NCBI GenBank assembly: GCA_017471705.1 | Contig: JAFUSH010000040.1 | Location: forward strand, 19,915-83,914 | Reading direction: 5' to 3' | Origin: Alphaproteobacteria bacterium | GTDB taxonomy: Bacteria; Pseudomonadota; Alphaproteobacteria; RF32; CAG-239 | Length of the DNA: 64,000 nucleotides | Shown here: one piece after another, positions 9,970 through 52,909 of the stretch | Numbering within the stretch: position 1 is the first letter of the stretch | Layout: every line of letters begins with the position of its first letter | Program-made: the position numbers and the translations under genes | Notes under the pieces: model-generated | What the model saw: the letters and a program-made list of their open reading frames with translations, nothing else | Databases searched by the model: none | Told to the model about the DNA's origin: nothing

Positions 9970-11880
9970 ATGAGTAATAAAGTTATAGGTATTGATTTGG
10001 GTACAACCAATTCTTGCTTTGCCGTTATGGACGGTAAAGAAGCCAAAGTTTTGGAAAATTCCGAAGGGGCGAGAACAACTCCTTCTATGGTGGCATTTAC
10101 CGATACCGAGCGCTTGGTCGGTTATCCTGCAAAACGTCAGGCGGTCACCAATCCTGAGAATACCTTGTTTGCTATTAAAAGATTAATCGGACGTCGTTTT
10201 GATTCGGCAGAAGTGGCAAAATTTAAGGAACATTCACCGTTTAAAATTGTTTCCGGTGATAACGGTGACGCTTGGGTGGAAGCAAAAGGGCAAAAATATG
10301 CTCCGTCACAGATTTCAGCAATAGTTTTGCAAAAAATTAAGGAATATGCCGAAAGTTATTTGGGTGAGAAAGTAGAAAAAGCGGTGATTACCGTTCCGGC
10401 ATATTTTAACGATTCACAGCGTCAGGCTACCAAAGATGCCGGTAAAATCGCCGGATTGGAAGTTCTGCGTATTATCAACGAGCCGACAGCGGCAGCGCTT
10501 GCTTACGGTTTGGATAAAAAAACTTCCGGTACAATCGTAGTTTATGACTTGGGCGGCGGTACTTTCGATGTTTCTATTTTGGAAATCGGCGACGGCGTGT
10601 TTGAAGTTAAGGCTACTAACGGTGATACATTCTTGGGCGGTGAAGATTTTGACCAAAGAATCGTTAATTATTTGGCTGATGAGTTCAAAAAAGAGCAGGG
10701 TATTGACTTGCGTTCCGACAGATTGGCTTTGCAGCGTTTGAAAGAAGCCGCCGAAAAAGCTAAAATAGAACTTTCGGCTACTACACAGACCGAAGTTAAT
10801 TTGCCGTTTATTACCGCAGACAGCACCGGTCCTAAACACTTAAATATTAAATTAACCCGCGCTAAACTGGAATCTTTGGTGGAAGATTTAATCGAGAAAA
10901 CAGCAATTCCTTGTCAAAAAGCTTTATCAGATGCCGGTTTGAAAGCCAGCGACATCAGCGAAGTTATTTTGGTCGGCGGTATGACACGTATGCCGAAGGT
11001 TCAGGAAAAAGTTAAAGAGATTTTCGGCAAAGAACCGCATAAAGGCGTTAATCCTGATGAAGTTGTAGCTGTTGGTGCCGCTATTCAAGGCGGTGTGCTG
11101 ATGGGTGATGTTAAAGATGTATTGCTTTTGGATGTTACCCCGCTGTCACTCGGTATTGAAACTTTGGGCGGTGTGTTTACGCGTCTTATTGACCGTAATA
11201 CCACTATTCCGACCAGAAAATCACAAGTATTTTCAACTGCCGAAGATGGACAAACCGCAGTTACCATTCGCGTGTTCCAAGGCGAACGTGAAATTGCCGC
11301 ACACAATAAATTGCTCGGTCAGTTTGATTTGGTGGGTATTCCTCCGGCGCCGCGCGGTATGCCGCAAATCGAAGTTACCTTTGATATTGACGCCAACGGT
11401 ATCGTGAACGTTTCGGCGAAAGATAAGGCAACCAATAAAGAACAGGCTATCCGTATTCAAGCTTCCGGCGGATTGAGCGAAGATGAAATCAATAAGATGG
11501 TTAAAGATGCCGAAGCTAATGCCGAAGCCGATAAACAAAAGAAAGAAGTGGTTGAGGCTAAAAACCGTGCTGAAGGTTTGGTTCACGAAGTTGAGAAAAA
11601 CCTGAAAGAGTTCGGCGATAAGGTTTCTGATGCTGATAAAGAGAATATCAAAAAAGCAGTTGAAGATACCAAAGCGGCAATGGAAAAAGAAAATCTGGAA
11701 GATTTGAAATCCAAAACCGATGCCTTAATGCAGGCTTCAATGAAACTCGGCGAAGCGATGTATAAGTCGCAGCAAGCGCAAGGTGCGCAAGGTGCGGCTC
11801 AGGGTGCCGATACCGGTTCTGCCGGAGAAGCCCCTAAAGATGAAAATGTGGTGGATGCCGATTTCGAAGAAGTCAAATAA
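9970..11880 (+). CDS. dnaK: Chaperone DnaK (Hsp70)
   Basis: [15 protein letters not shown]..., DLGGGTFD and [11 protein letters not shown] motifs. I chose ATG 9970 behind an AAAGGAGG SD rather than the track's start at 9907. Confidence 0.95.
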
Positions 11881-41184: not shown

Positions 41185-41802
41185 ATGAACAAAAGACAGG
41201 AATGCGCCTTAAAGACAAGGCAAAGACTATTGGATACGGCAACTGATTTAATCAGCAAGGGTGATTTTCGTTCACTCAATATTGAGGATATCACAAAAGC
41301 CTGCGGATGCGCTAAAGGAACTTTTTATACATATTTCAAAAATCGTGAACAAATCAGCTGTGAAGCTTGCCGCAATATGTTTAATCGCATTGAAAAGCGT
41401 ATGCAGCAAATGAAAAATAAAACTTTTTTAGAGCGGTTGGGACATTATTTTGACAGCTTTATGGTAGAAGTTCAGCGTTATGGTATCAATGTGTGCCGAG
41501 AGTGGATACGAGGTGTGATAGATCCGAGCCTGTCGCCGGAAAATACGGATATTACTAAGTGGCAATTTGACGTTGATATGCTTCAAAATATACTTAATCA
41601 GGCAATAAAAGACGGTGAGTTGAAGACAACGGCACCGGTTGAACTTTTGACTCATATAATTATTTCCGAACTCTACGGAATGATGACTTGCTGGTGTATG
41701 TCGGACGGAAAATTCAAACCGACGGATTGGTCGGATAAGGTGTTTAAGGCGCAGCTTATACCGATGATAGGACAATATTTAACTAAAATAGGAAAACAAT
41801 GA
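41185..41802 (+). CDS. TetR-family transcriptional regulator
   Basis: TRQRLLDTATDLISKGDFRSLNIEDITKACGCAKGTFYTYF HTH. ATG 41185 follows a GCGAGG SD. Confidence 0.8.
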   Translation: MNKRQECALKTRQRLLDTATDLISKGDFRSLNIEDITKACGCAKGTFYTYFKNREQISCEACRNMFNRIEKRMQQMKNKTFLERLGHYFDSFMVEVQRYGINVCREWIRGVIDPSLSPENTDITKWQFDVDMLQNILNQAIKDGELKTTAPVELLTHIIISELYGMMTCWCMSDGKFKPTDWSDKVFKAQLIPMIGQYLTKIGKQ

Positions 41803-42158
41803 CACAAACATATTTAACATTAAACAACGGACAGAAAATGCCGCAATTCGGGCTAGGTGTGTTCTTGGTGTCGGATGGCAAAGATACAATTGAGGCTTGT
41901 TTAAATGCGTTTAAGCTGGGATACCGTCATATAGATACGGCACACGCTTACCAAAATGAACGCGGTGTCGGTGAAGCGTTAAAACAAAGCGGATTAAAAC
42001 GCGGAGAAGTATGGATTACCACTAAATTATGGCCAACCGAGTATGGCGAAGGAAAAACTTTGCCGGCTATAGATAAAATGCTGGAGCGGTTGCAGACAGA
42101 TTATATTGATTTATTATTATTGCATCAATATTTCATATCGTGGAAACCTGAAGATTAA
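41799..42158 (+). pseudogene. Aldo/keto reductase fragment (N-terminal ~115 aa only)
   Basis: LNNGQKMPQFGLGVF, GYRHIDTAHAYQNE and DYIDLLLLHQ are AKR N-terminal motifs. The ORF stops at 119 aa, whereas the family is ~275 aa. Confidence 0.7.
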
Positions 42159-42820: not shown

Positions 42821-43819
42821 ATGAAGAAGATTTTGACCGCATTTTTAGTATCAACAACACTTTTATGGGGAGAAAATGCTATGGCAAATGCTTTAAATGA
42901 TAAACAGCAGGCAATTGCAGAGGTGTCTGCTTATGCGGCACTGGGTAATCAAGACAGGCTTAAGCAGTCCATTGTCGCCGGTTTGGATAAAGGTGTAACT
43001 GTTAATGAGTTTAAAGAAATTCTGGTACAGGCGTACGCTTATTGCGGTTTCCCTCGCAGTTTGAATGCTCTTGCCACACTGATGCAAGCAGCACCGGAGA
43101 GTGCCAGAGATGCAACACCTGCGCTACAAGCGGATGCTTTAGCTGTCGGTACGGAAAATCAAACCAAACTTGTCGGTCAGGAAGTGAAAGGACCTTTGTT
43201 TGACTTTGCACCGGCAATTGATAAATACCTGAAGGCACATTTATTCGGTGATATTTTTGCTCGTGACAATGTGGATTGGCAGTTAAGAGAAGTTGCCACC
43301 ATTGCTATGCTTTCAGCTCGTGACGGTTTGGAAAGTCAATTAAACAGCCATATTAATGTAGGTAAGCATAATGGTTTGACTGATGAGCAAGTTGCTGAAA
43401 TTTTGAATATTTCCGGCGAGGCAAAAGCAAAGAATGTTATATTCGGTTTCGGTGAGGAAAATCCGTACGGACAATATTTTACAGGCAAGAGTTATCTGCA
43501 AAAAATTACGAATGAAAACGGAGTACCGATGTTTAATGTGACATTTGAACCGAAGTGCCGTAATAATTGGCATATTCATCACGGCGGCGGACAGATTTTA
43601 CTTGTAACTCAAGGCAGAGGGTGGTATCAGGCTTGGGGAGATGAACCTCGTGAGCTGAAAGCAGGTGACGTAGTAAATATCCCTGCCGAAACGAAGCACT
43701 GGCACGGTGCCGCCAAAGACAGTTGGTTTACGCATATTGCCGTAGAAGTTCCTTCGGAAAACGGTTCGGCAGAATGGTTGGAGCCGGTTACGGATGAAGA
43801 GTATGATAGATTAAAATAG
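42821..43819 (+). CDS. Secreted carboxymuconolactone-decarboxylase-family / cupin fusion protein
   Basis: Signal peptide, two CMD-like helices (AYAYCGFPRSLNAL and the ATIAMLSARDG segment) and a C-terminal cupin (WHIHHGGGQILLV...IPAETKHWHGA). Confidence 0.7.
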   Translation: MKKILTAFLVSTTLLWGENAMANALNDKQQAIAEVSAYAALGNQDRLKQSIVAGLDKGVTVNEFKEILVQAYAYCGFPRSLNALATLMQAAPESARDATPALQADALAVGTENQTKLVGQEVKGPLFDFAPAIDKYLKAHLFGDIFARDNVDWQLREVATIAMLSARDGLESQLNSHINVGKHNGLTDEQVAEILNISGEAKAKNVIFGFGEENPYGQYFTGKSYLQKITNENGVPMFNVTFEPKCRNNWHIHHGGGQILLVTQGRGWYQAWGDEPRELKAGDVVNIPAETKHWHGAAKDSWFTHIAVEVPSENGSAEWLEPVTDEEYDRLK

Positions 43820-43831
43820 GGAGAATAAATA

Positions 43832-44761
43832 TTGATTAAAGTAAAAGAAACTTTGGGCAGTTCGGTAAATATTCCGGTCGAAAAGCGTGACGGCGAAGCG
43901 TCAATTGTATATTTTACAAAAGATTTAAGCGCCGAAGGTTTGCAAAAAATCTATCAAAAAGTTAAGCAAAATATGAAAGGAAAAGTTGCCGTTAAACTGC
44001 ATACGGGTGAAAAGCACGGTCCGAATATTATTCCGCGCGAATGGGTTAAAAATCTGATTGAAACAGAAATACCGAATGCAACTATTGTGGAAACAAACAC
44101 CTATTATGAGGGGGACAGATATACTACCGAACAACATCGCGAAACCCTAAAAGTAAACGGCTGGACATTTGCACCGGTGGATATTTTAGATGAAGAAGGC
44201 ACAACTATGTGGGCGCTTGAGGGAGGAAAATATTTCAAAGAAATGTCAGTCGGTTCACATTCGGATAAATATGATTCTTTGCTTGCACTGACGCATTTTA
44301 AAGGACATACGATGGGTGGTTTCGGAGGTTCAAATAAAAATCTCGGTATCGGAATGGCAGACGGTCGTATAGGTAAAGCAATGATTCATACTTATCCGGA
44401 GAAAGGTCAGTGGAGTATCGCTATGGATGAGTTTATGGAACGTATGACCGAATCTACCAAAGCAATACTCGATCATTTCGGTAAAAACATTACCTACATT
44501 AATGTACTGCGCAATATGTCAGTCAGTTGTGATTGTGAGGGAATAGCCGCCGCACCGGTGGTTACTCCGGATATAGGTATTTTGGCAAGCGATGATATTT
44601 TGGCGGTGGATCAGGCGTCTGTAGATATGGTGTTTGCTTTGGCCGAAAAAAGCCGTGATTTGCGTGAACGCATTGAAACCAGACACGGTCTGCGCCAACT
44701 TTCATATATGAAAGAACTTGGTATGGGCAATGATAAGTATATTTTAATTGATTTGGATTAA
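43832..44761 (+). CDS. DUF362-family protein
   Basis: VAVKLHTGEKHGPNIIP and THFKGHTMGGFGGSNKNLGIG are typical DUF362 blocks. TTG start behind an AGGGAG SD. Confidence 0.7.
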   Translation: MIKVKETLGSSVNIPVEKRDGEASIVYFTKDLSAEGLQKIYQKVKQNMKGKVAVKLHTGEKHGPNIIPREWVKNLIETEIPNATIVETNTYYEGDRYTTEQHRETLKVNGWTFAPVDILDEEGTTMWALEGGKYFKEMSVGSHSDKYDSLLALTHFKGHTMGGFGGSNKNLGIGMADGRIGKAMIHTYPEKGQWSIAMDEFMERMTESTKAILDHFGKNITYINVLRNMSVSCDCEGIAAAPVVTPDIGILASDDILAVDQASVDMVFALAEKSRDLRERIETRHGLRQLSYMKELGMGNDKYILIDLD

Positions 44762-44772
44762 AAGGTTAAGGT

Positions 44773-46083
44773 ATGAAGAACAAAATTCTAATATACGGTC
44801 GGTTTTTGACAGCGGTTGCGGTTATGATTTTATGCGGATTGGCGTTTTATCGTCATACATATCCGTTAGAAATTTTTGATGTGCAATTCACTGCAGCACT
44901 GCAAAACGGTATTATTTCCGGTTTCGGACTCGGTCTGATTTTACTTGCTTTGCTCATTATGATAACGCTTCTCTTCGGGCGCGTATACTGTTCGACTTTA
45001 TGTCCGCTCGGACTTTATCAGGAATTGCTGACTATCTTGTTTAAACCGTTTTATAAAAAACGCAAAGCTGCTATGCAACCGGTAAAACATTATGCGTTTG
45101 CTTATTTTTCGGCGGCAGTTTTATTTGGTGCATTATGCGGAGGTACGGTTGTTTTACTCCGAATGCTCGACCCTTATTCGGTGGCAGGTAATGCTTTGAG
45201 CGGTGCTTGTTTCGGGGTAGGTTTCGCAATTGCTTTGGCTATTTTGGTGTTTTTTAAGAAACGTTTTTTCTGCACCAACATATGTCCGGTCGGTGCGGTT
45301 TTAGGTTTAATTTCACGTTTTTCGCTGTTTAAAATCCGTATTGACACCGATAAATGCAAAATGTGCAGTTTGTGCGCAAGATCCTGTCCGTGCGGTTCGA
45401 TTGATTTTAAGAATCATACGGTTAACAACGAAACCTGCGTTAAGTGTTTTAAGTGTTTGAGCCATTGCGGACACGGAGCGCTGTATTACGGTTTACCGAA
45501 AACAAAACGACCGGAATTTAACTTAAAGCGTCGGCAATTATTAACATCAGGTGCAGTGTTGGTGCTTTTCGGAGCGGCTTTCAGAGGGGGAATTGAACTT
45601 ACTAAGTTGGCAGCTTCCAAGATTAAAAAAGTTATCTTACCGGCCGGCTCCGGCAAACCGGAATACTTTGCCAATCGCTGTTTAAATTGTAACTTGTGTG
45701 TACAAAACTGTCCGATGAAAATTATTAAGAAAGCCACGGCTGATATACCGTTTGTACATTTGGACTATGGTGATACCTATTGTGATTTTAATTGCCATAA
45801 GTGTTCTCAAGTATGTCCGTCGGGTGCAATCAAACGCATAAGTTTAGCTGAAAAACAGAATACAAAAATCGCTAATGCCGTTATTAATGAAGATGTTTGC
45901 ATCAAATGCGGTGTTTGCGCGATGGAATGTCCGAAACAAATCATTATAAAAGAAGATGGCAAATTTCCGATTATTCAATTTGATAAATGTATAGGCTGCG
46001 GCAAGTGCGCAAGCGTCTGTCCGGTTAAAGCTATTAAAATTGAATCAACCCCTCAACAAATTACTTTAGTAAAAGGAGAATAA
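44773..46083 (+). CDS. Membrane-anchored polyferredoxin (multiple 4Fe-4S motifs)
   Basis: The N-terminal TM region carries CSTLCP/CTNICP motifs. It is followed by [45 protein letters not shown] and [12 protein letters not shown]. Confidence 0.8.
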
Positions 46084-46084
46084 A

Positions 46085-46336
46085 ATGAGTTTAGGTATCA
46101 CTGAAATAATTTTAATTTTAGTTGTTGTTTTAGTACTGTTCGGCGGAAAGAAAATTCCGGAGCTGGCTCGCGGTTTAGGCAAGGCGCAGGCCGAGTATAA
46201 AAAAGCTAGGGAAGCGATTGAAAACGAGGTAAACGAATTTAAGTCCGAGGTAGAAAAAGCAGCCGGCGAAGAAACCGGTAATAAAACACCGGCAAAAAAA
46301 ACCGCCAAGAAATCGGTGAAGAAAGCTAAAAAATAG
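46085..46336 (+). CDS. tatA: Twin-arginine translocase subunit TatA/E
   Basis: [34 protein letters not shown] is the canonical TatA N-terminus. Confidence 0.9.
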
Positions 46337-46337
46337 T

Positions 46338-47051
46338 ATGGTCGATAAAAAGGAAGAAACATTGATAGAACACTTGGAAGCATTGCGCACAATGCTTATC
46401 AGGTGTTTGCTTTCATTGGCAATAGGGTTGGGACCGATTTTTTTTATCACACCTTATGTTATGGATTTGCTCATCAGGGTGATGATGGCGGAAAATGAGG
46501 TTACGCTTAATTTCTTTTCGCCGATGGAAGTGTTTATCTTACAACTTAAAATCGCACTGGTGCTTGATATTTTGTTCTGCTTTCCGTATATGGCACGCGA
46601 GGTATGGCGGTTTGTCGCACCGGCGCTCTATCAAAACGAACAGGACTTTGTTAAGTCAATCGTTTTGACTTCGAGTGCACTTTTTATAATCGGTGTACTG
46701 TTTTGTTTGTTTTTCATTTTGCCGATGGTTATTCGCTTCGGATTGAGTTTTGTCACAGAAAGCATTAAACCTGTATTTGGTATCGGCAATATCGTATCGC
46801 TGGCACTTTGGCTTTCGTTGGTGTTTGGGGCAATGTTTCAATTTCCGCTCATCACTTATGCTTTAATCCGTTCCGATATAGTCGGTTATGAAACGATGAA
46901 AAGCAAACGAACCTATATTTTTGTCGGTATTTTGATAATATCCGGACTTTTGACGCCGCCGGATATTATCAGCCAATTGTTGTTAACCATTCCGACTTAC
47001 GGACTTTTTGAAATCGGCTTGTTTTTCGGAAAAAGAAAGAAAATTTTGTAA
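46338..47051 (+). CDS. tatC: Twin-arginine translocase subunit TatC
   Basis: 237 aa with 6 TM segments, LIEHLEALR start and the GLLTPPD motif. Confidence 0.9.
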   Translation: MVDKKEETLIEHLEALRTMLIRCLLSLAIGLGPIFFITPYVMDLLIRVMMAENEVTLNFFSPMEVFILQLKIALVLDILFCFPYMAREVWRFVAPALYQNEQDFVKSIVLTSSALFIIGVLFCLFFILPMVIRFGLSFVTESIKPVFGIGNIVSLALWLSLVFGAMFQFPLITYALIRSDIVGYETMKSKRTYIFVGILIISGLLTPPDIISQLLLTIPTYGLFEIGLFFGKRKKIL

Positions 47052-47068: not shown

Positions 47069-48307
47069 ATGAATAGACGTGAATTTTTAATGAGTACTCT
47101 TGCTGCTTTTGCCATTGCAGCTTTACCAAAGCTGACAATTGCGGAAACCGTAGCCGTATCGGAAAAAGTAAAGGCGCAAATCAACAATAACAATAAACTC
47201 GGTTTCGGCTTTATGCGTTTACCGCTTAAAAATCCGAACGACCAGACATCAATTGACTATGATACCTTAAATAAAATGGTTGATAAGTTTATTGAGCGCG
47301 GTTTTACCTATTTTGATACCGCGTGGATGTATATGGGGCACGAGAGCGAAGTTGCCATTCGCAAATCGGTTGTTGAACGCCATCCGAGGGATAGCTATAC
47401 CGTTGCCAGCAAAATGCCGATAGGTATGGTAACAAGCGCCGAAAATATGGAAGAAATATTTAATAAACAGTTAGAGAAAACAGGCTTGGATTATTTCGAT
47501 TATTATTTAGTACATAATGTAAATGCCAGTACAATGCCGAATGTTAAAAAATATAATCCGTTCAAATTTATTGCCGAAAAGAAAAAAGAAGGTAAAATCA
47601 AACATATCGGTTTTTCTTTTCACGATAGTGTCGATTTGTTGGAAGAAATTCTGAAAGAACATCCGGAAGTTGAGTTTGTTCAACTGCAAATCAATTATAT
47701 TGATTGGGATAATGCCACCATTCAGTCACGTAAATGTTATGAAGTCGCACAGAAATATAATTTACCGGTTGTTGTAATGGAGCCGGTTAAAGGCGGAAGT
47801 TTGGCAATGGTGCCGGAAAATGTGGAAAAAATCTTCAAAGACGCCGAACCTGATATGTCGGTAGCTTCTTGGGCCATACGTTATGCTGCAAGTTTGCCGG
47901 GGGTTCGTACGGTGTTGAGCGGTATGACCACTATGGAACAATTGGAAGATAATACGAGTTATATGCAAAATTTTGAACCGCTTAGTGATAAAGAAAATAA
48001 AACGATTGAAGAGGCTGTTAAAGTTTTACACGCATCAATTGCCATTCCTTGCACGGCTTGCCGTTATTGTGTAGAACATTGTCCGATGAAGATTGATATT
48101 CCGAGTATGTTTGCGCTTTATAATGCCGAAAAACAAGATACAAAAGATAAGCCGTTCAGAGTTCAACGTGTTTATTATAACAATTTGATTGAACATTCCG
48201 GTAAGGCTTCACAGTGTGTTCATTGTAAAAGTTGTGAAAAACATTGCCCTCAACATATCGTTATTAATGAGTGGATGACGAAAATTGCCCAAACATTTGA
48301 GGGGTAA
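47069..48307 (+). CDS. Tat-signal aldo/keto reductase with a C-terminal 4Fe-4S ferredoxin-like domain
   Basis: MNRREFLMSTLAAFAIAALP twin-arginine leader, AKR core (FDTAWMY, DYYLVHN), then CTACRYCVEHCP and CVHCKSCEKHCP. Confidence 0.8.
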   Translation: MNRREFLMSTLAAFAIAALPKLTIAETVAVSEKVKAQINNNNKLGFGFMRLPLKNPNDQTSIDYDTLNKMVDKFIERGFTYFDTAWMYMGHESEVAIRKSVVERHPRDSYTVASKMPIGMVTSAENMEEIFNKQLEKTGLDYFDYYLVHNVNASTMPNVKKYNPFKFIAEKKKEGKIKHIGFSFHDSVDLLEEILKEHPEVEFVQLQINYIDWDNATIQSRKCYEVAQKYNLPVVVMEPVKGGSLAMVPENVEKIFKDAEPDMSVASWAIRYAASLPGVRTVLSGMTTMEQLEDNTSYMQNFEPLSDKENKTIEEAVKVLHASIAIPCTACRYCVEHCPMKIDIPSMFALYNAEKQDTKDKPFRVQRVYYNNLIEHSGKASQCVHCKSCEKHCPQHIVINEWMTKIAQTFEG

Positions 48308-48309
48308 TA

Positions 48310-48984
48310 ATGACTGATGACATATATTCGGATATTGGTTTTGCCAAGCTTGATTTGAGTCGTGAGACAAGAACCGGATTGCCGGAAACCGTTTATTGCG
48401 CAGGTAAAACAAATGAGCAGCTCTTGAAAATATTGCAAACTTTTCAGGAAAAGAATGTTGCCGTTCTGGGTACTCGTTGCAGTAAAGAGCAATATAACTT
48501 TGTGAAAGAAAGCGGATTGCCGCTTGTTTATGGTGAACTTTCGCGTGTTATTAAACTCGGCGAAAATAAGACAAAAATGAGAGGCGTGTTGGCGGTTTGT
48601 GCTGCCGGCACCGCTGATTTGCCGGTAGCGGAAGAAGCAGCTGAAGTAGCTGAATTTACCGGTATAACTGTGGAGCGATATTACGATGTCGGCGTGGCAG
48701 GATTACATCGTCTGTTATCCAAAATCGAGGAAATCAAAAAAGCTGATGCGATTATTGCCGTTGCCGGTATGGAAGGTGCGCTTCCGAGTGTGGTCGCAGG
48801 TTTGGTTTCGGCTCCGGTTATTGCCGTACCGACTTCGGTCGGATACGGAGCTTCGTTTCAGGGTTTGACGGCACTCTTGGCTATGCTTAATTCTTGCGCC
48901 GAGGGTATTTCGGTGGTTAATATTGATAACGGTTTCGGGGCGGCGATGGTGGCGCGTAAGATGTTAAGAATAAAGGAAAAATAA
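48310..48984 (+). CDS. larB: Nickel-pincer cofactor biosynthesis protein LarB (NaAD carboxylase/hydrolase, PurE-like)
   Basis: FAKLDLSRETRTGLPETVYCAGKT, VCAAGTADLPVAEEA and AVAGMEGALPSVVAG. Confidence 0.85.
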   Translation: MTDDIYSDIGFAKLDLSRETRTGLPETVYCAGKTNEQLLKILQTFQEKNVAVLGTRCSKEQYNFVKESGLPLVYGELSRVIKLGENKTKMRGVLAVCAAGTADLPVAEEAAEVAEFTGITVERYYDVGVAGLHRLLSKIEEIKKADAIIAVAGMEGALPSVVAGLVSAPVIAVPTSVGYGASFQGLTALLAMLNSCAEGISVVNIDNGFGAAMVARKMLRIKEK

Positions 48985-50208
48985 ATGGCGAAATACTTAT
49001 ATTTTGAAGGCGCTTGCGGTATTTCCGGCGATATGACTGTCGCGTCATTGTTGGATTTGGGAGCGAGTCGGGAAAAACTTGATAAAGCAGTTGAAAGCTT
49101 GCACTTGGAGGGATTTCATTATCATATCAAGCGCAAAAATTCATACAGTATTTCCGGTCTGGATTTTGATGTACATTTGCACCATCACGATGAACCTCAC
49201 GAGGAACATTATCACGAGCATAGCCACGGCGAACATCACCGCGAACACCGGCATTTAAGCGATGTTTATGCCATTATCGACCGTGCAGATATAACCGAAA
49301 AGGCACGGACTTTAGCTAAGAAAATTTTTGATATTGTAGCCGAGGCGGAAGCCAAAGCGCACGGCGTCGATAAAAAGGAAGTACATTTCCACGAAGTCGG
49401 GGCCATTGATTCGATTGTTGATATTATATCCGCCGCCGTATTGCTTGATGACTTGGCAATTGATAAGGTTATTGTTACCGGTTTAAGCGAGGGAACAGGG
49501 ACAATTATGTGTCAGCACGGCGAATTGCCGGTGCCGGTTCCGGCGGTGATGAATATTGCAGAGGCTCATCAAATACATTTGCGTTCTACCGCTAATATAG
49601 GTGAAATGGTAACACCAACGGGTATTGCGATTATTGCCGCATTACAGCCGCAAAATGAATTGCCGAGGATTTATAAAATAATAAAATCCGGTATCGGTCT
49701 GGGTAAACGCGATTTCGGACACGCAAATTTTCTGCGTACGATGATTATTGAAGACGTTCAAAATACCGATACTATGTTTGCTTTAGAGAGCAATATAGAT
49801 GATTGTACCGCGGAAGTACTCGGGTTGGCAATGGAAAAAATTATGAAAGCCGGTGCTTATGATGTACATTTTGAACCGTGTTATATGAAGAAAAACCGTC
49901 CGGCGTATATATTGCGAGCCATTACTTCTGCCGATAAGTTAGAAGCGGTGGAATATGCCGTGTTCAAATATACGACAACCATCGGTTTGAGAAAATATCC
50001 GGTTGACAGAACTTGTATGAAGCGTAAAATTATAAAAGTTTCACTTGAATGCGGAGAGGTTGAAGTCAAAGTTTCGACTTTTAAAGACATTGTGCGCTAT
50101 GCGCCGGAATTTGAAAGCGTTAAGAAGTTAGCCGAGGCAACCGGTAAAGATTTTCATTTTATCTATAATTCGGCGCAACAATTGGCAATGAAAAATGAGG
50201 AAAAATAA
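48985..50208 (+). CDS. larC: Nickel insertion protein LarC
   Basis: YFEGACGISGDM start, His-rich stretch HLHHHDEPHEEHYHEHSHGEHHREHRH and HFHEVGAIDSIVD. Confidence 0.85.
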   Translation: MAKYLYFEGACGISGDMTVASLLDLGASREKLDKAVESLHLEGFHYHIKRKNSYSISGLDFDVHLHHHDEPHEEHYHEHSHGEHHREHRHLSDVYAIIDRADITEKARTLAKKIFDIVAEAEAKAHGVDKKEVHFHEVGAIDSIVDIISAAVLLDDLAIDKVIVTGLSEGTGTIMCQHGELPVPVPAVMNIAEAHQIHLRSTANIGEMVTPTGIAIIAALQPQNELPRIYKIIKSGIGLGKRDFGHANFLRTMIIEDVQNTDTMFALESNIDDCTAEVLGLAMEKIMKAGAYDVHFEPCYMKKNRPAYILRAITSADKLEAVEYAVFKYTTTIGLRKYPVDRTCMKRKIIKVSLECGEVEVKVSTFKDIVRYAPEFESVKKLAEATGKDFHFIYNSAQQLAMKNEEK

Positions 50209-51035
50209 TGACAGACGGATTACATCTTAAATTAGAGAAGCTACAGGCATATTTCAAAGAACTCGGTTCGGTGGCCATAGCCTTTTCGAGCGGCGTAGAT
50301 TCAACTTTTATGTTAGCGGTAGCTTCTGATATATTACCTAAAGATAAAGTTTTGGCTTTGACGGCGGCTTCGGAGTCTTTTCCCAAAAGAGAATTGAACG
50401 CTGCCCGTCAGTTTTGTAACGACAGAGGAATTAAGCATATTGTTTTCAGTTCGGAAGAGTTGAATATTGAGGGATTTAAGCACAACCCCAAAAATCGCTG
50501 CTATTTATGCAAACGCGAATTATTTACTAAAATCAAAGAATTGGCGGTGCGGAATAACATAGAATATGTTTGCGAAGGCTCTAATACCGACGATTTGGGA
50601 GATTATCGCCCCGGTTTACAAGCTGTTGCCGAACTTGGCATTAAAAGTCCTCTGCGTGAGGCAGAATTGACGAAACAGGATATTCGCAATTTATCAAAAG
50701 AAATGGATTTGCCTACTTGGAATAAACCTTCATTTGCTTGTTTGGCTTCGCGTTTTGTATACGGTGAACTGATTTCCGAGGAAAAATTACAAATGGTTGA
50801 TAAGGCGGAACAACTGTTAATAGATTTAGGATTTTCCCAAGTACGAGTTCGGATTCACGGCAAAATCGCTCGCATAGAAATTCTGCCGGAAGAGTTTGCA
50901 AAAATTATAGAATCGGAAATAAGAAAGAAAATCAATACGAGTTTTGCCGAATATGGCTTTTCATACACCGCACTTGATTTGAAAGGTTATCGCACAGGTT
51001 CAATGAACGAAACAATTCTAAAGGATGTTAAATGA
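50208..51035 (+). CDS. larE: ATP-dependent sacrificial sulfur transferase LarE
   Basis: PP-loop AFSSGVDS plus CYLCKRELF and the SFACLASRF Cys motif. It shares 1 nt with the larC stop. Confidence 0.85.
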   Translation: MTDGLHLKLEKLQAYFKELGSVAIAFSSGVDSTFMLAVASDILPKDKVLALTAASESFPKRELNAARQFCNDRGIKHIVFSSEELNIEGFKHNPKNRCYLCKRELFTKIKELAVRNNIEYVCEGSNTDDLGDYRPGLQAVAELGIKSPLREAELTKQDIRNLSKEMDLPTWNKPSFACLASRFVYGELISEEKLQMVDKAEQLLIDLGFSQVRVRIHGKIARIEILPEEFAKIIESEIRKKINTSFAEYGFSYTALDLKGYRTGSMNETILKDVK

Positions 51036-52129
51036 CAAGACGTGAATTTTTACTGGGCAGTGCCGTTATCTTAACCGCCGGCGGCGCCGGATATCTTAAT
51101 TTGGCAAAGTTTGGGCATTTACCCGACAAAATAAGTATGGTGAAGATTAATAAATCGCCGCATTACAGAAACGGAAAGTTTCAAAATCTGCACCATACCG
51201 AAAAAATGACCGGACAAGGCGGATTTTTCGGTACAATGTGGGATTTTTGGTTTGGTAATCATCCAGATACAAAACCGACTAAAATTATTCCGGCGGTGAA
51301 AACAGATTTAAAAAATTTACCGTTAAATGAGGATTTGCTGGTTTGGTTCGGACATTCCTCCGTTTATTTTCAATTAAAAGGCAAGCGATTTTTGATTGAT
51401 CCGGTATTTTCGAATAATGCGTCACCTCTGCCTCATAATGTTGTACCATTTAAGGGTACTGATATTTATTCGGCGGATGATATGCCGGAGATTGATTATC
51501 TGATTATCACTCACGATCATTATGATCACTTGGATTATGAAACAATTATTGCCTTAAAATCGAAAATAAAGCACGTTATCACCGGTTTGGGAGTTGGTTC
51601 GCATCTCAGATATTGGGGCTACGACAATGATATTATAACTGAACTTGATTGGTTTGAAAGTACGGATACTAAAGACGGTAAAATATATTGTTTACCGGCG
51701 CGTCATTTTTCGGGAAGATTGTTTGAATGCCGCACTTTGTGGGCATCATTTCTGATTGAAATGAATGGCTTTAAACTTTATATCGGCGGAGATTCCGGTT
51801 ATGATAATCATTATAAAGCCATCGGTGATAAGTTCGGCGGCGTTGATTTTGCTCTGCTTGAGGCCGGACAATATGATAATAATTGGCGCTATATTCACGA
51901 ACACCCCAAAGAATTTATTCAATCGGCAACTGATTTGAAAGCCAAAAGAGTTATTCCGGTGCATAATTCAAAGTTTTGTATTTGCAATCATCCGTGGTAT
52001 GAACCGTTGGACAAGATAAGCGAGCTTGCCGCTGATGTAGATTTAAACCTTAATACCCCGAAAATCGGTGAAATTGTAAATTTAAGTGAAAACCGGCAAT
52101 TTGCTGCGTGGTGGAAAGAATTAAAATAA
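51032..52129 (+). CDS. Tat-signal MBL-fold metallo-hydrolase
   Basis: MTRREFLLGSAVILTAGGAG leader and ITHDHYDHLD (HxHxDH). ATGA overlap with larE. Confidence 0.8.
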   Translation: MTRREFLLGSAVILTAGGAGYLNLAKFGHLPDKISMVKINKSPHYRNGKFQNLHHTEKMTGQGGFFGTMWDFWFGNHPDTKPTKIIPAVKTDLKNLPLNEDLLVWFGHSSVYFQLKGKRFLIDPVFSNNASPLPHNVVPFKGTDIYSADDMPEIDYLIITHDHYDHLDYETIIALKSKIKHVITGLGVGSHLRYWGYDNDIITELDWFESTDTKDGKIYCLPARHFSGRLFECRTLWASFLIEMNGFKLYIGGDSGYDNHYKAIGDKFGGVDFALLEAGQYDNNWRYIHEHPKEFIQSATDLKAKRVIPVHNSKFCICNHPWYEPLDKISELAADVDLNLNTPKIGEIVNLSENRQFAAWWKELK

Positions 52130-52162: not shown

Positions 52163-52909
52163 ATGAAAAAAGTTACTATTTTAACAATTATGATGTTGCT
52201 TGCAGCATCATCGGCGCTGGCGGCGAATAATTCAAATGCTGAGCTTACAATCACCGCTTTATGGCTTACGGCGTTTTTAACCGCCGTTGTTCACACCATA
52301 ACCGGACCTGATCATTATTTGCCGTTTATAGCCATTGCCAAAAGTCGCGATTTCAGTTTAAGAAAAACGTTACTTTGGACTTTTATCTGCGGTTTGGGAC
52401 ATATAGGCAGTGCGCTTTTGATTGCTCTCGGCTTTGTGTATTTGTCGCATTTTTTAACGGATACGCAGTTTACGTGGATTGAAGATAATCGTTCTGATTT
52501 GGCGGCTTATGCTTTAATCGGGCTCGGCGGTGCATATTTGTTATGGGCGCTGCGTCACAGATGGCTGCATAAACACGGTCAGTCACACCATCACGGATAC
52601 GCTATGCACGGCGGAACCGAAACTAAGGATAAAAATATTACCGTCTGGGTTGTGTTTATTATATTTGTTTTAGGTCCTTGCGAGGCTCTGCTTCCGATTT
52701 TGACAGCCTCGAGCGTTATGGGTATTCCGGCTGTTATCAGTTCGACGGTAATATTTTCTGTTGCTACGATTGCTACTATGATGATTGCTGTTACACTGGG
52801 GTATTTAGGTATATCAGCCTTGCGTTTTAAAAAAGCGGAGGCATATGCACACGAACTTGCCGGTGTGACCGTTATGGCCTGCGGTTTGTTAATTTTATGC
52901 GGTCTGTAA
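52163..52909 (+). CDS. Membrane protein resembling NicO/RcnA-type nickel/cobalt transporters
   Basis: Signal-like N-terminus, HTITGPDH motif in the first TM helix and a His-rich loop (HRWLHKHGQSHHHGYAMHGG). The family call rests on context and motif only. Confidence 0.5.
   Translation: MKKVTILTIMMLLAASSALAANNSNAELTITALWLTAFLTAVVHTITGPDHYLPFIAIAKSRDFSLRKTLLWTFICGLGHIGSALLIALGFVYLSHFLTDTQFTWIEDNRSDLAAYALIGLGGAYLLWALRHRWLHKHGQSHHHGYAMHGGTETKDKNITVWVVFIIFVLGPCEALLPILTASSVMGIPAVISSTVIFSVATIATMMIAVTLGYLGISALRFKKAEAYAHELAGVTVMACGLLILCGL

Follow-up and report, generated by a model that had tools for sequence, protein, structure and literature searches.

The DNA analyzed here (hereafter the window) is a stretch of 64,000 nucleotides from an alphaproteobacterium. 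It contains an operon that encodes LarB, LarC and LarE, the proteins that make a cofactor, nickel-pincer nucleotide (NPN), together with a DUF362 protein and an aldo-keto reductase (AKR) that carries a twin-arginine translocation (Tat) signal and a C-terminal 2x[4Fe-4S] region (hereafter AKR-FeS). On balance, we slightly favor the reading that the NPN of this operon goes to the Tat-exported AKR-FeS, and that the DUF362 protein, a relative with the LarA fold, need not have NPN as its ligand and probably serves the same pathway as an accessory redox enzyme. Judging from its motif, its adjacency to the lar genes and its co-occurrence with them, AKR-FeS would most likely be the main NPN client.

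The identity of the NPN users in cofactor producers that lack larA has been a question since 2014-2015, and AKR-type (NphT) and ornithine-cyclodeaminase-type users were reported only in 2025-2026. An initial annotation of the window had recognized LarB, LarC and LarE, all of which were found to match their family profiles, and had proposed that the DUF362 protein is an NPN-binding enzyme that would explain the larA-less cluster. The locus in fact offers two testable candidates in one operon: the exported AKR-FeS, and the LarA-fold DUF362 protein with the tether Lys and the Ni-ligand His.

The aldo-keto reductase adjacent to larB

In a study that mined larA-less larBCE clusters, 427 aldo-keto reductases were counted next to them (Semersky et al., Nat Chem 2026, PMC13524815). 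In one of these, NphT, Lys200 forms the covalent link to the nickel-pincer mononucleotide and His144 is on the nickel (PDB 9YEB; PMC13524815). AKR-FeS is encoded on the + strand at nt 47069-48307, begins with the Tat-type sequence MNRREFL, and matches Aldo_ket_red (PF00248; 176 bits, E 1e-51) and, at the C-terminal 2x[4Fe-4S] region, Fer4. Its His185 (nt 47621-47623) lies in GFSFH and its Lys241 (nt 47789-47791) in EPVKGG. The two residues are 56 positions apart, a spacing equal to that of H144 and K200 in NphT. Ser183, two residues before the His, stands where NphT has T142, and the hydrophobic Val240 just before the Lys stands where NphT has I199. When the canonical AKRs 5DAN and 1YNP were aligned to AKR-FeS, they showed Asn-Phe or a gap at the His and Arg or Ala at the Lys. 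The stop codon of the AKR-FeS gene is 2 nt before the larB start, in a larA-less cluster.

The absence of LarA from the window, stated in the initial annotation, extends to the entire genome. No Lar_N match was found in the window or in the whole 1.8-Mb, 100%-complete genome, and a search of six-frame open reading frames (ORFs) with a LarA profile was also empty. An ornithine-cyclodeaminase-type NPAD client was set aside, as the genome gave only a weak partial Rossmann match (27.5 bits).

The co-occurrence of these genes was examined in 25 genomes of the genus, the window genome included. LarC is present in five of them (G000, G005, G006, G016 and G023). The same five genomes, and no others, have an AKR-FeS ortholog (76-91% identical), in each case next to larB. 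The distribution of DUF362 is different: it is not present in G016 and G023 despite the lar genes and AKR-FeS. In G005, a DUF362 ortholog with a Tat signal is located on another contig among unrelated neighbors, while G006 has a 44%-identical DUF362 paralog with a Tat signal, in divergent orientation beside the polyferredoxin. Conversely, G003, the genome of which is 83% complete, has a DUF362 ortholog and no lar genes. In a relative with 90% identity, a 13-gene redox island headed by TetR ends with DUF362 and adjoins the module of polyferredoxin, Tat, AKR and lar genes. The DUF362 protein is thus not needed to explain the larA-less cluster, because an NphT-like AKR adjoins larB and tracks larBCE in five of five cases in the genus. 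This AKR is one of the four genes between DUF362 and larB, and it was overlooked in the initial annotation. DUF362 indeed lies upstream of the lar genes; with four genes in between, it is the fifth gene upstream of larB and not the fourth, as had been reported.

The residue at the tether position was then compared among AKR-FeS genes that stand beside DUF362. In LarC-positive genomes (the window, G006, L065 and L066) it is Lys, whereas in LarC-negative genomes (L034, L058 and L082) it is Leu, Ala or Arg. The tether residue of AKR-FeS thus varies with LarC; the AKR Lys follows the NPN pathway, while the corresponding Lys of DUF362 is invariant.

Two points weigh on the other side. First, the equivalence of the AKR motif to that of NphT rests on the spacing, the published residue numbers and the alignment with canonical AKRs. 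Searching the PDB sequences with the AKR protein and with a profile of Lys-type AKR-FeS domains did not place NphT (9YEB) among the matches listed. Second, five metagenome-assembled genomes (MAGs) that yielded neither LarB nor LarC have AKR-FeS copies with both the His and the Lys (L136-L140, L148 and L156; G197, G201, G205, G209 and G210). Either the absences are exaggerated by the incompleteness of MAGs, or not all of these Lys-type AKRs depend on NPN and the Lys is no strict diagnostic feature. On account of these five MAGs, we rejected the idea that the Lys of AKR-FeS marks NPN capacity perfectly.

It is worth noting that an AKR-FeS of Eggerthella sp. CAG:209 (L131) has Arg in place of the tether Lys (EPLRGG) and adjoins larB and a larC fragment. 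This AKR-FeS may bind NPN non-covalently.

The DUF362 protein and its kinship with LarA

The DUF362 gene (nt 43832-44761, + strand) is an open reading frame that starts with TTG and encodes 309 residues. A ribosome-binding site, GGAGA, can be read straight from the sequence at nt 43820-43824 (+ strand), 7 nt ahead of the TTG. The protein has no signal peptide. An overlooked Tat signal farther upstream was ruled out, since the preceding gene stops 12 nt upstream and a good ribosome-binding site precedes the TTG. The protein of the window is thus cytoplasmic. It matches Pfam DUF362 (PF04015) over model positions 1-200 of 200 (E 2e-37; 129.6 bits against a cut-off of 24). In the literature searched, no paper was found to give any DUF362 protein a function or a cofactor.

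The initial annotation drew attention to a segment of this protein, THFKGHTMGGFGGSNKNLGIGMADGRIGKAMIH (THFKGH159TMGGFGGSNK169...IH186; aa 154-186, nt 44291-44389, + strand), which was confirmed on the ORF. His159 and Lys169 are 10 residues apart and Lys169 and His186 are 17 apart (H159-x9-K169-x16-H186). In LarA, K184 and H200, with R75, bind NPN, and D72, H108, H174 and K298 are catalytic (PMC7583248; PMC11770544); K184 is the NPN tether and H200 the Ni ligand (PMC7583248). The LarA residues named in the initial annotation are correct (PMC7583248), and so is the spacing of 10 and 16: two LarA homologs read EPHFFAGFSGGPKGIMPGIAGLETILTFH, that is, H-10-K-16-H.

The spacing by itself is weak evidence for kinship with LarA, and the likeness could be a coincidence in a gene unrelated to LarA. 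The bare His/Lys/His triple arises in 3.5% of shuffled sequences, and searches of the PDB sequences with the DUF362 protein and profile (phmmer and hmmsearch) found no LarA. The protein of the window gave no match to Lar_N (PF09861) or LarA_C (PF21113) at E<=10. The fuller pattern common to LarA and DUF362, H...GF.G..K....G.A(8-9)H, was however seen in 0 of 200,000 shuffles. The kinship is visible only to fold comparison and profile-profile comparison. For the former, an AF2 model was built on an alignment of 43 homologs (pLDDT 93.9), replacing a single-sequence model with pLDDT of only 38. The model shows a compact two-domain LarA fold. In a Foldseek search of the PDB, ranks 1-17 were all LarA or LarA homologs, including 2YJG, 8EZF, 6C1W, 5HUQ, 7S91, 6D6Z, 4NAR, 9Q3J/K and 9EID, with E values of 6e-8 to 1e-3, about 270-290 aligned columns and TM scores of 0.40-0.50. 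Alignment of the DUF362 alignment to that of LarA by hhalign gave E 0.002 over 215 columns, with H159, K169 and H186 on H174, K184 and H200. The match to LarA that the initial annotation proposed to look for was thus found both in fold and in residue register.

The Pfam profiles agree with this result. One genuine LarA passes the DUF362 threshold at 26.5 bits, and two DUF362 orthologs match Lar_N exactly at the motif region, at scores below the cut-off (E 0.017 and 0.087). Since Foldseek, hhalign and the Pfam cross-matches agree, we concluded that the resemblance between LarA and DUF362 is homology, that is, common descent and not chance. Together with the shuffle test, these results refute the chance-spacing explanation, which we regard as barely credible. 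The kinship itself is already known: DUF362 and DUF2088 are placed in Pfam clan CL0471, and DUF362 has been used as an outgroup in work on LarA (PMC11770544).

By descent, DUF362 has kept three residues of the LarA cofactor site (His159, Lys169 and His186). The agreement with the LarA active site is, on the other hand, incomplete. In the hhalign alignment, D72, R75, H108 and K298 of LarA have no conserved counterpart in DUF362: R75 is paired with the non-conserved K61, H108 with D95 and D72 with T58, and the region of K298 is not conserved. DUF362 instead has a family-specific CxC, Cys233-Asp234-Cys235 (nt 44528-44536, + strand), which is not in LarA. It is invariant in 92 of 92 orthologs and nearly so in an alignment of 35-90% identity. 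Altogether 18 key residues are invariant in all of the 92 DUF362 ortholog and paralog sequences, whether or not the hosts have lar genes. They comprise His155, His159, Lys169, His186, Cys233, Cys235 and a further dozen polar residues.

In metagenomes, a DUF362 domain of about 40-45% identity was also observed inside proteins of 1,000-2,900 residues (for example P0168, P0175, P0206 and P0250). This suggests cell-surface or multidomain extracellular forms.

Distribution of the DUF362 orthologs and their possible ligand

Close orthologs of the DUF362 protein (59-73% identical) were analyzed in 80 species-level genomes, mostly from gut and rumen. They belong to Bacillota, Bacteroidota, Actinomycetota, Pseudomonadota, Verrucomicrobiota and Elusimicrobiota. 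LarC is absent from 29 of these genomes (36%). LarB, moreover, is absent from all 20 LarC-negative genomes checked (17 of the 29, plus G003, G022 and G025, three relatives from the genus or order that carry DUF362), among them a closed 2.5-Mb Bacteroidales chromosome. The DUF362 tree shows at least 8-10 switches of LarC status. The usual neighbors of DUF362 are flavodoxins, flavin mononucleotide reductases, nitroreductases, AKRs and MerR or TetR regulators, and about 70 of the 80 loci have no lar gene nearby. Some orthologs are Sec lipoproteins, and there would therefore be no loading of a cofactor in the cytoplasm. Because the orthologs function in many bacteria that are unable to make NPN, the ligand at the Lys/His/Cys site of DUF362 is most likely not NPN. 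It might be a metal that the site binds directly, or a different anionic ligand.

Several facts weigh against this assignment. Genes of the lar set lie within 10 kb of DUF362 in five of the 80 loci (L028, L065, L100, L102 and L105), and the window and G006 are two further cases. Chance would give about 0.4 such cases by a rough estimate (51 lar-positive genomes x 20 kb / ~2.5 Mb), so that the adjacency, found in Alphaproteobacteria, Verrucomicrobiota and Bacillota, is about 12 times the chance level. The gene order in Telmatospirillum siberiense is Tat-signal DUF362-larC-larE-larB. At 8852-10861 of L105, a Verrucomicrobiales MAG, a lipoprotein DUF362 and then a signal-less DUF362 stand directly upstream of larB-larC-larE and a His-rich membrane protein. 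LarA and AKR-FeS homologs were looked for in these two genomes and none was found, leaving DUF362 as the sole visible client; the AKR near the Telmatospirillum locus is canonical and has no His. In addition, many DUF362 orthologs have Tat signals, and such signals usually mark proteins that are loaded with a cofactor before export. Finally, DUF362 has kept precisely the Lys that tethers NPN in LarA and the His that ligates Ni. The co-occurrence that the initial annotation proposed to examine was therefore borne out in part: the adjacency to lar genes is far above chance in distant lineages, but 29 of the 80 ortholog-bearing genomes have no LarC.

In a Lachnospiraceae MAG, DUF362 and a Lys-type AKR-FeS are adjacent between larE and larB-larC. 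In L102, from an uncultured alphaproteobacterium, the larC that directly follows a Tat-signal DUF362 (10924-11664) ends early at a stop codon, after 246 residues, with no larB or larE behind it. The lar cluster here seems to be decaying, next to a DUF362 gene that is intact.

The facts above could be explained by another hypothesis, in which the DUF362 protein is itself an NPN enzyme and a second client in this operon, derived from LarA. It would use Lys169 as the tether, His186 as the residue that completes the coordination of nickel and His159 as the general acid/base, in the cytoplasm here and after Tat export in relatives. We consider this possible and rather unlikely. The LarA fold with the triad in register, the Lys-to-His spacing of 16 residues, which is kept as in LarA in most members of the subfamily, and the excess of lar adjacency in three phyla all speak for it. 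So do the two larA-less and AKR-FeS-less genomes in which DUF362 is the sole candidate, the Tat signals of close orthologs, and the presence of LarC in 51 of the 80 ortholog-bearing genomes; among the first 50 such genomes sampled, 33 have LarC and 23 of these are without canonical LarA. However, the key residues are unchanged in the genomes without LarC and LarB, loading in the cytoplasm is not possible for the Sec-lipoprotein forms, and R75, D72, H108 and K298 of LarA are not conserved. Moreover, two of the five lar-positive genomes of the genus do without DUF362, and most of the ortholog loci are remote from lar genes.

In a wider form of this hypothesis, the DUF362 subfamily would make up a second family of NPN enzymes, derived from LarA. 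Its members would work either in the cytoplasm or, once exported by Tat, in the periplasm, and in many cases beside an NPN-loaded AKR-[4Fe-4S] that is wired to a membrane polyferredoxin. The lar-less copies of gut bacteria would then scavenge the cofactor or have shifted to another ligand. This wider form seems to us doubtful. That NPN binding is the ancestral state of the subfamily, or that DUF362 is a second client, is, with the two taken jointly, only a tentative suggestion.

It is also conceivable that DUF362 is a non-catalytic helper, either a nickel binder using His155, His159, His186, Cys233 and Cys235 or a LarA-like carrier that hands NPN to AKR-FeS. This would fit the pairing of DUF362 with Lys-type AKR-FeS inside lar clusters of two phyla (the window, L065 and L066), the joint presence of a lipoprotein DUF362, a cytoplasmic DUF362 and a His-rich permease candidate in L105, and the invariant site rich in His and Cys. 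However, DUF362 is dispensable where lar genes and AKR are present (G016 and G023) and is retained in genomes without lar genes. Its approximately 18 invariant polar residues, furthermore, resemble an enzyme active site more than a metal carrier. A helper role is thus quite improbable. We therefore retain the reading in which AKR-FeS is the main client and DUF362 is an accessory redox enzyme.

The operon and comparison with known systems

From DUF362 to the His-rich membrane protein downstream of the lar genes, all genes share one strand. The gaps between them are 0-33 nt, and none contains a terminator-like site. DUF362 is followed by a membrane polyferredoxin (nt 44773-46083, + strand), which matches Pfam Fer4_5 and Fer4, with sub-threshold matches to the NapH, NapG and NapF NCBIfam models. 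It has a NapH-like N-terminal half, an internal twin-arginine-like segment (RRQLL) and a NapG-like poly-[4Fe-4S] half, with four clusters, and looks like a fusion of NapH-like and NapG-like proteins. A paralog of the polyferredoxin, 56% identical, is located on contig C67 of the same genome. TatA (nt 46085-46336, + strand; Pfam TatA_B_E, E 4e-15) and TatC (nt 46338-47051, + strand; Pfam TatC, E 5e-54) come next, ahead of AKR-FeS. According to tblastn, these tatA and tatC genes are the only copies in the genome. Tat export in this organism therefore seems to be reserved for the operon's own substrates, namely AKR-FeS, a metallo-beta-lactamase-fold protein and the NapG-like half of the polyferredoxin.

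Downstream of AKR-FeS, on the + strand, are LarB (nt 48310-48984; NCBIfam NF033503, 289 bits against a cut-off of 175), LarC (nt 48985-50208) and LarE (nt 50208-51035; TIGR00268, 338 bits against a cut-off of 150). LarC is a fusion of LarC1 and LarC2 with a His-rich loop; it matches Ni_insertion (E 7e-129) and TIGR00299 and NF052512, with scores of 190 and 131 bits. The metallo-beta-lactamase-fold protein (nt 51032-52129, + strand; Lactamase_B_2, E 4e-33) has a Tat-type N-terminus, MTRREFLL, and is found after larE in G006 and G016 as well. It is followed by a membrane protein of 248 residues with a His-rich loop (nt 52163-52909, + strand), which has no family match at E<=1 and contains the motif HTITGPDH and the loop HRWLHKHGQSHHHGYAMHGG. 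This protein also trails the lar genes in four relatives of the genus and in the Verrucomicrobiales MAG (57% identity), and is a candidate for a new family of nickel permeases.

On the upstream side, DUF362 is preceded by a secreted CMD-cupin fusion protein (nt 42821-43819, + strand; Pfam CMD and Cupin_2). This is the last gene of a variable redox/detox island, which is also present in the 90%-identical relative. At 41799-42158 there is an AKR remnant of 119 residues, in which N- and C-terminal ends are joined in frame. Its ortholog has 282 residues in G016 and in a metagenomic relative, and the remnant is probably a dead gene with an internal deletion.

In the mechanism that we propose, LarB, LarC and LarE would make the nickel-pincer cofactor, and the recipient would be AKR-FeS, whose gene is directly upstream of larB. 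AKR-FeS would take up the cofactor and fold in the cytoplasm, and the TatA and TatC of the operon would then export it. Its electrons would probably be routed through the NapH/NapG-like membrane polyferredoxin. The operon may thus be a self-contained module to build, load and export AKR-FeS, which fits because the only tatA and tatC of the genome are within it. DUF362 would be a variable accessory at the point where the lar module meets an island under TetR control that encodes flavodoxins, reductases and cupins, and probably functions in the same substrate pathway as AKR-FeS.

If this mechanism is true, an exported, Fe-S-fused AKR linked to a respiratory chain would bring NPN chemistry to the periplasm and would couple hydride transfer to one-electron carriers. 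If DUF362 binds NPN, this would be the first cofactor for a large family of unknown function. If it does not, this would show which other ligands the LarA scaffold can accommodate with its Lys/His pair.

AKR-FeS has the AKR fold, the adjacency to larBCE in a larA-less cluster and the His/Lys spacing in common with NphT. It differs in its Tat signal, in its C-terminal 2x[4Fe-4S] and in being encoded with TatAC and a NapH/NapG-like polyferredoxin. NphT, in contrast, is a small cytoplasmic monomer, and the paper on it makes no mention of ferredoxin, 4Fe-4S or Tat forms (PMC13524815). By these sequence features, AKR-FeS would be an exported, Fe-S-fused variant of the NPN-dependent AKRs, a form that is new relative to that paper.

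The DUF362 protein is a full-length member of the DUF362 family (PF04015, COG2006), for which the annotation is 'uncharacterized Fe-S center protein'. Compared with the DUF362 family at large, its subfamily has no fused ferredoxin domain and is unusually conserved across phyla, at the 59-73% identity of the close orthologs. With the LarA superfamily (Lar_N PF09861 and LarA_C PF21113; PDB 5HUQ, 6C1W, 2YJG and 9Q3J), DUF362 shares the two-domain fold and the clan CL0471, and both keep the segment H-x3-G-F-x-G-G-x-K...H. Unlike LarA, DUF362 is about 110 residues shorter, does not conserve Y294 and Q295 in addition to D72, R75, H108 and K298, has its own invariant CxC and other residues, occurs in exported forms (Tat or lipoprotein), and is not obligately co-inherited with larBCE.

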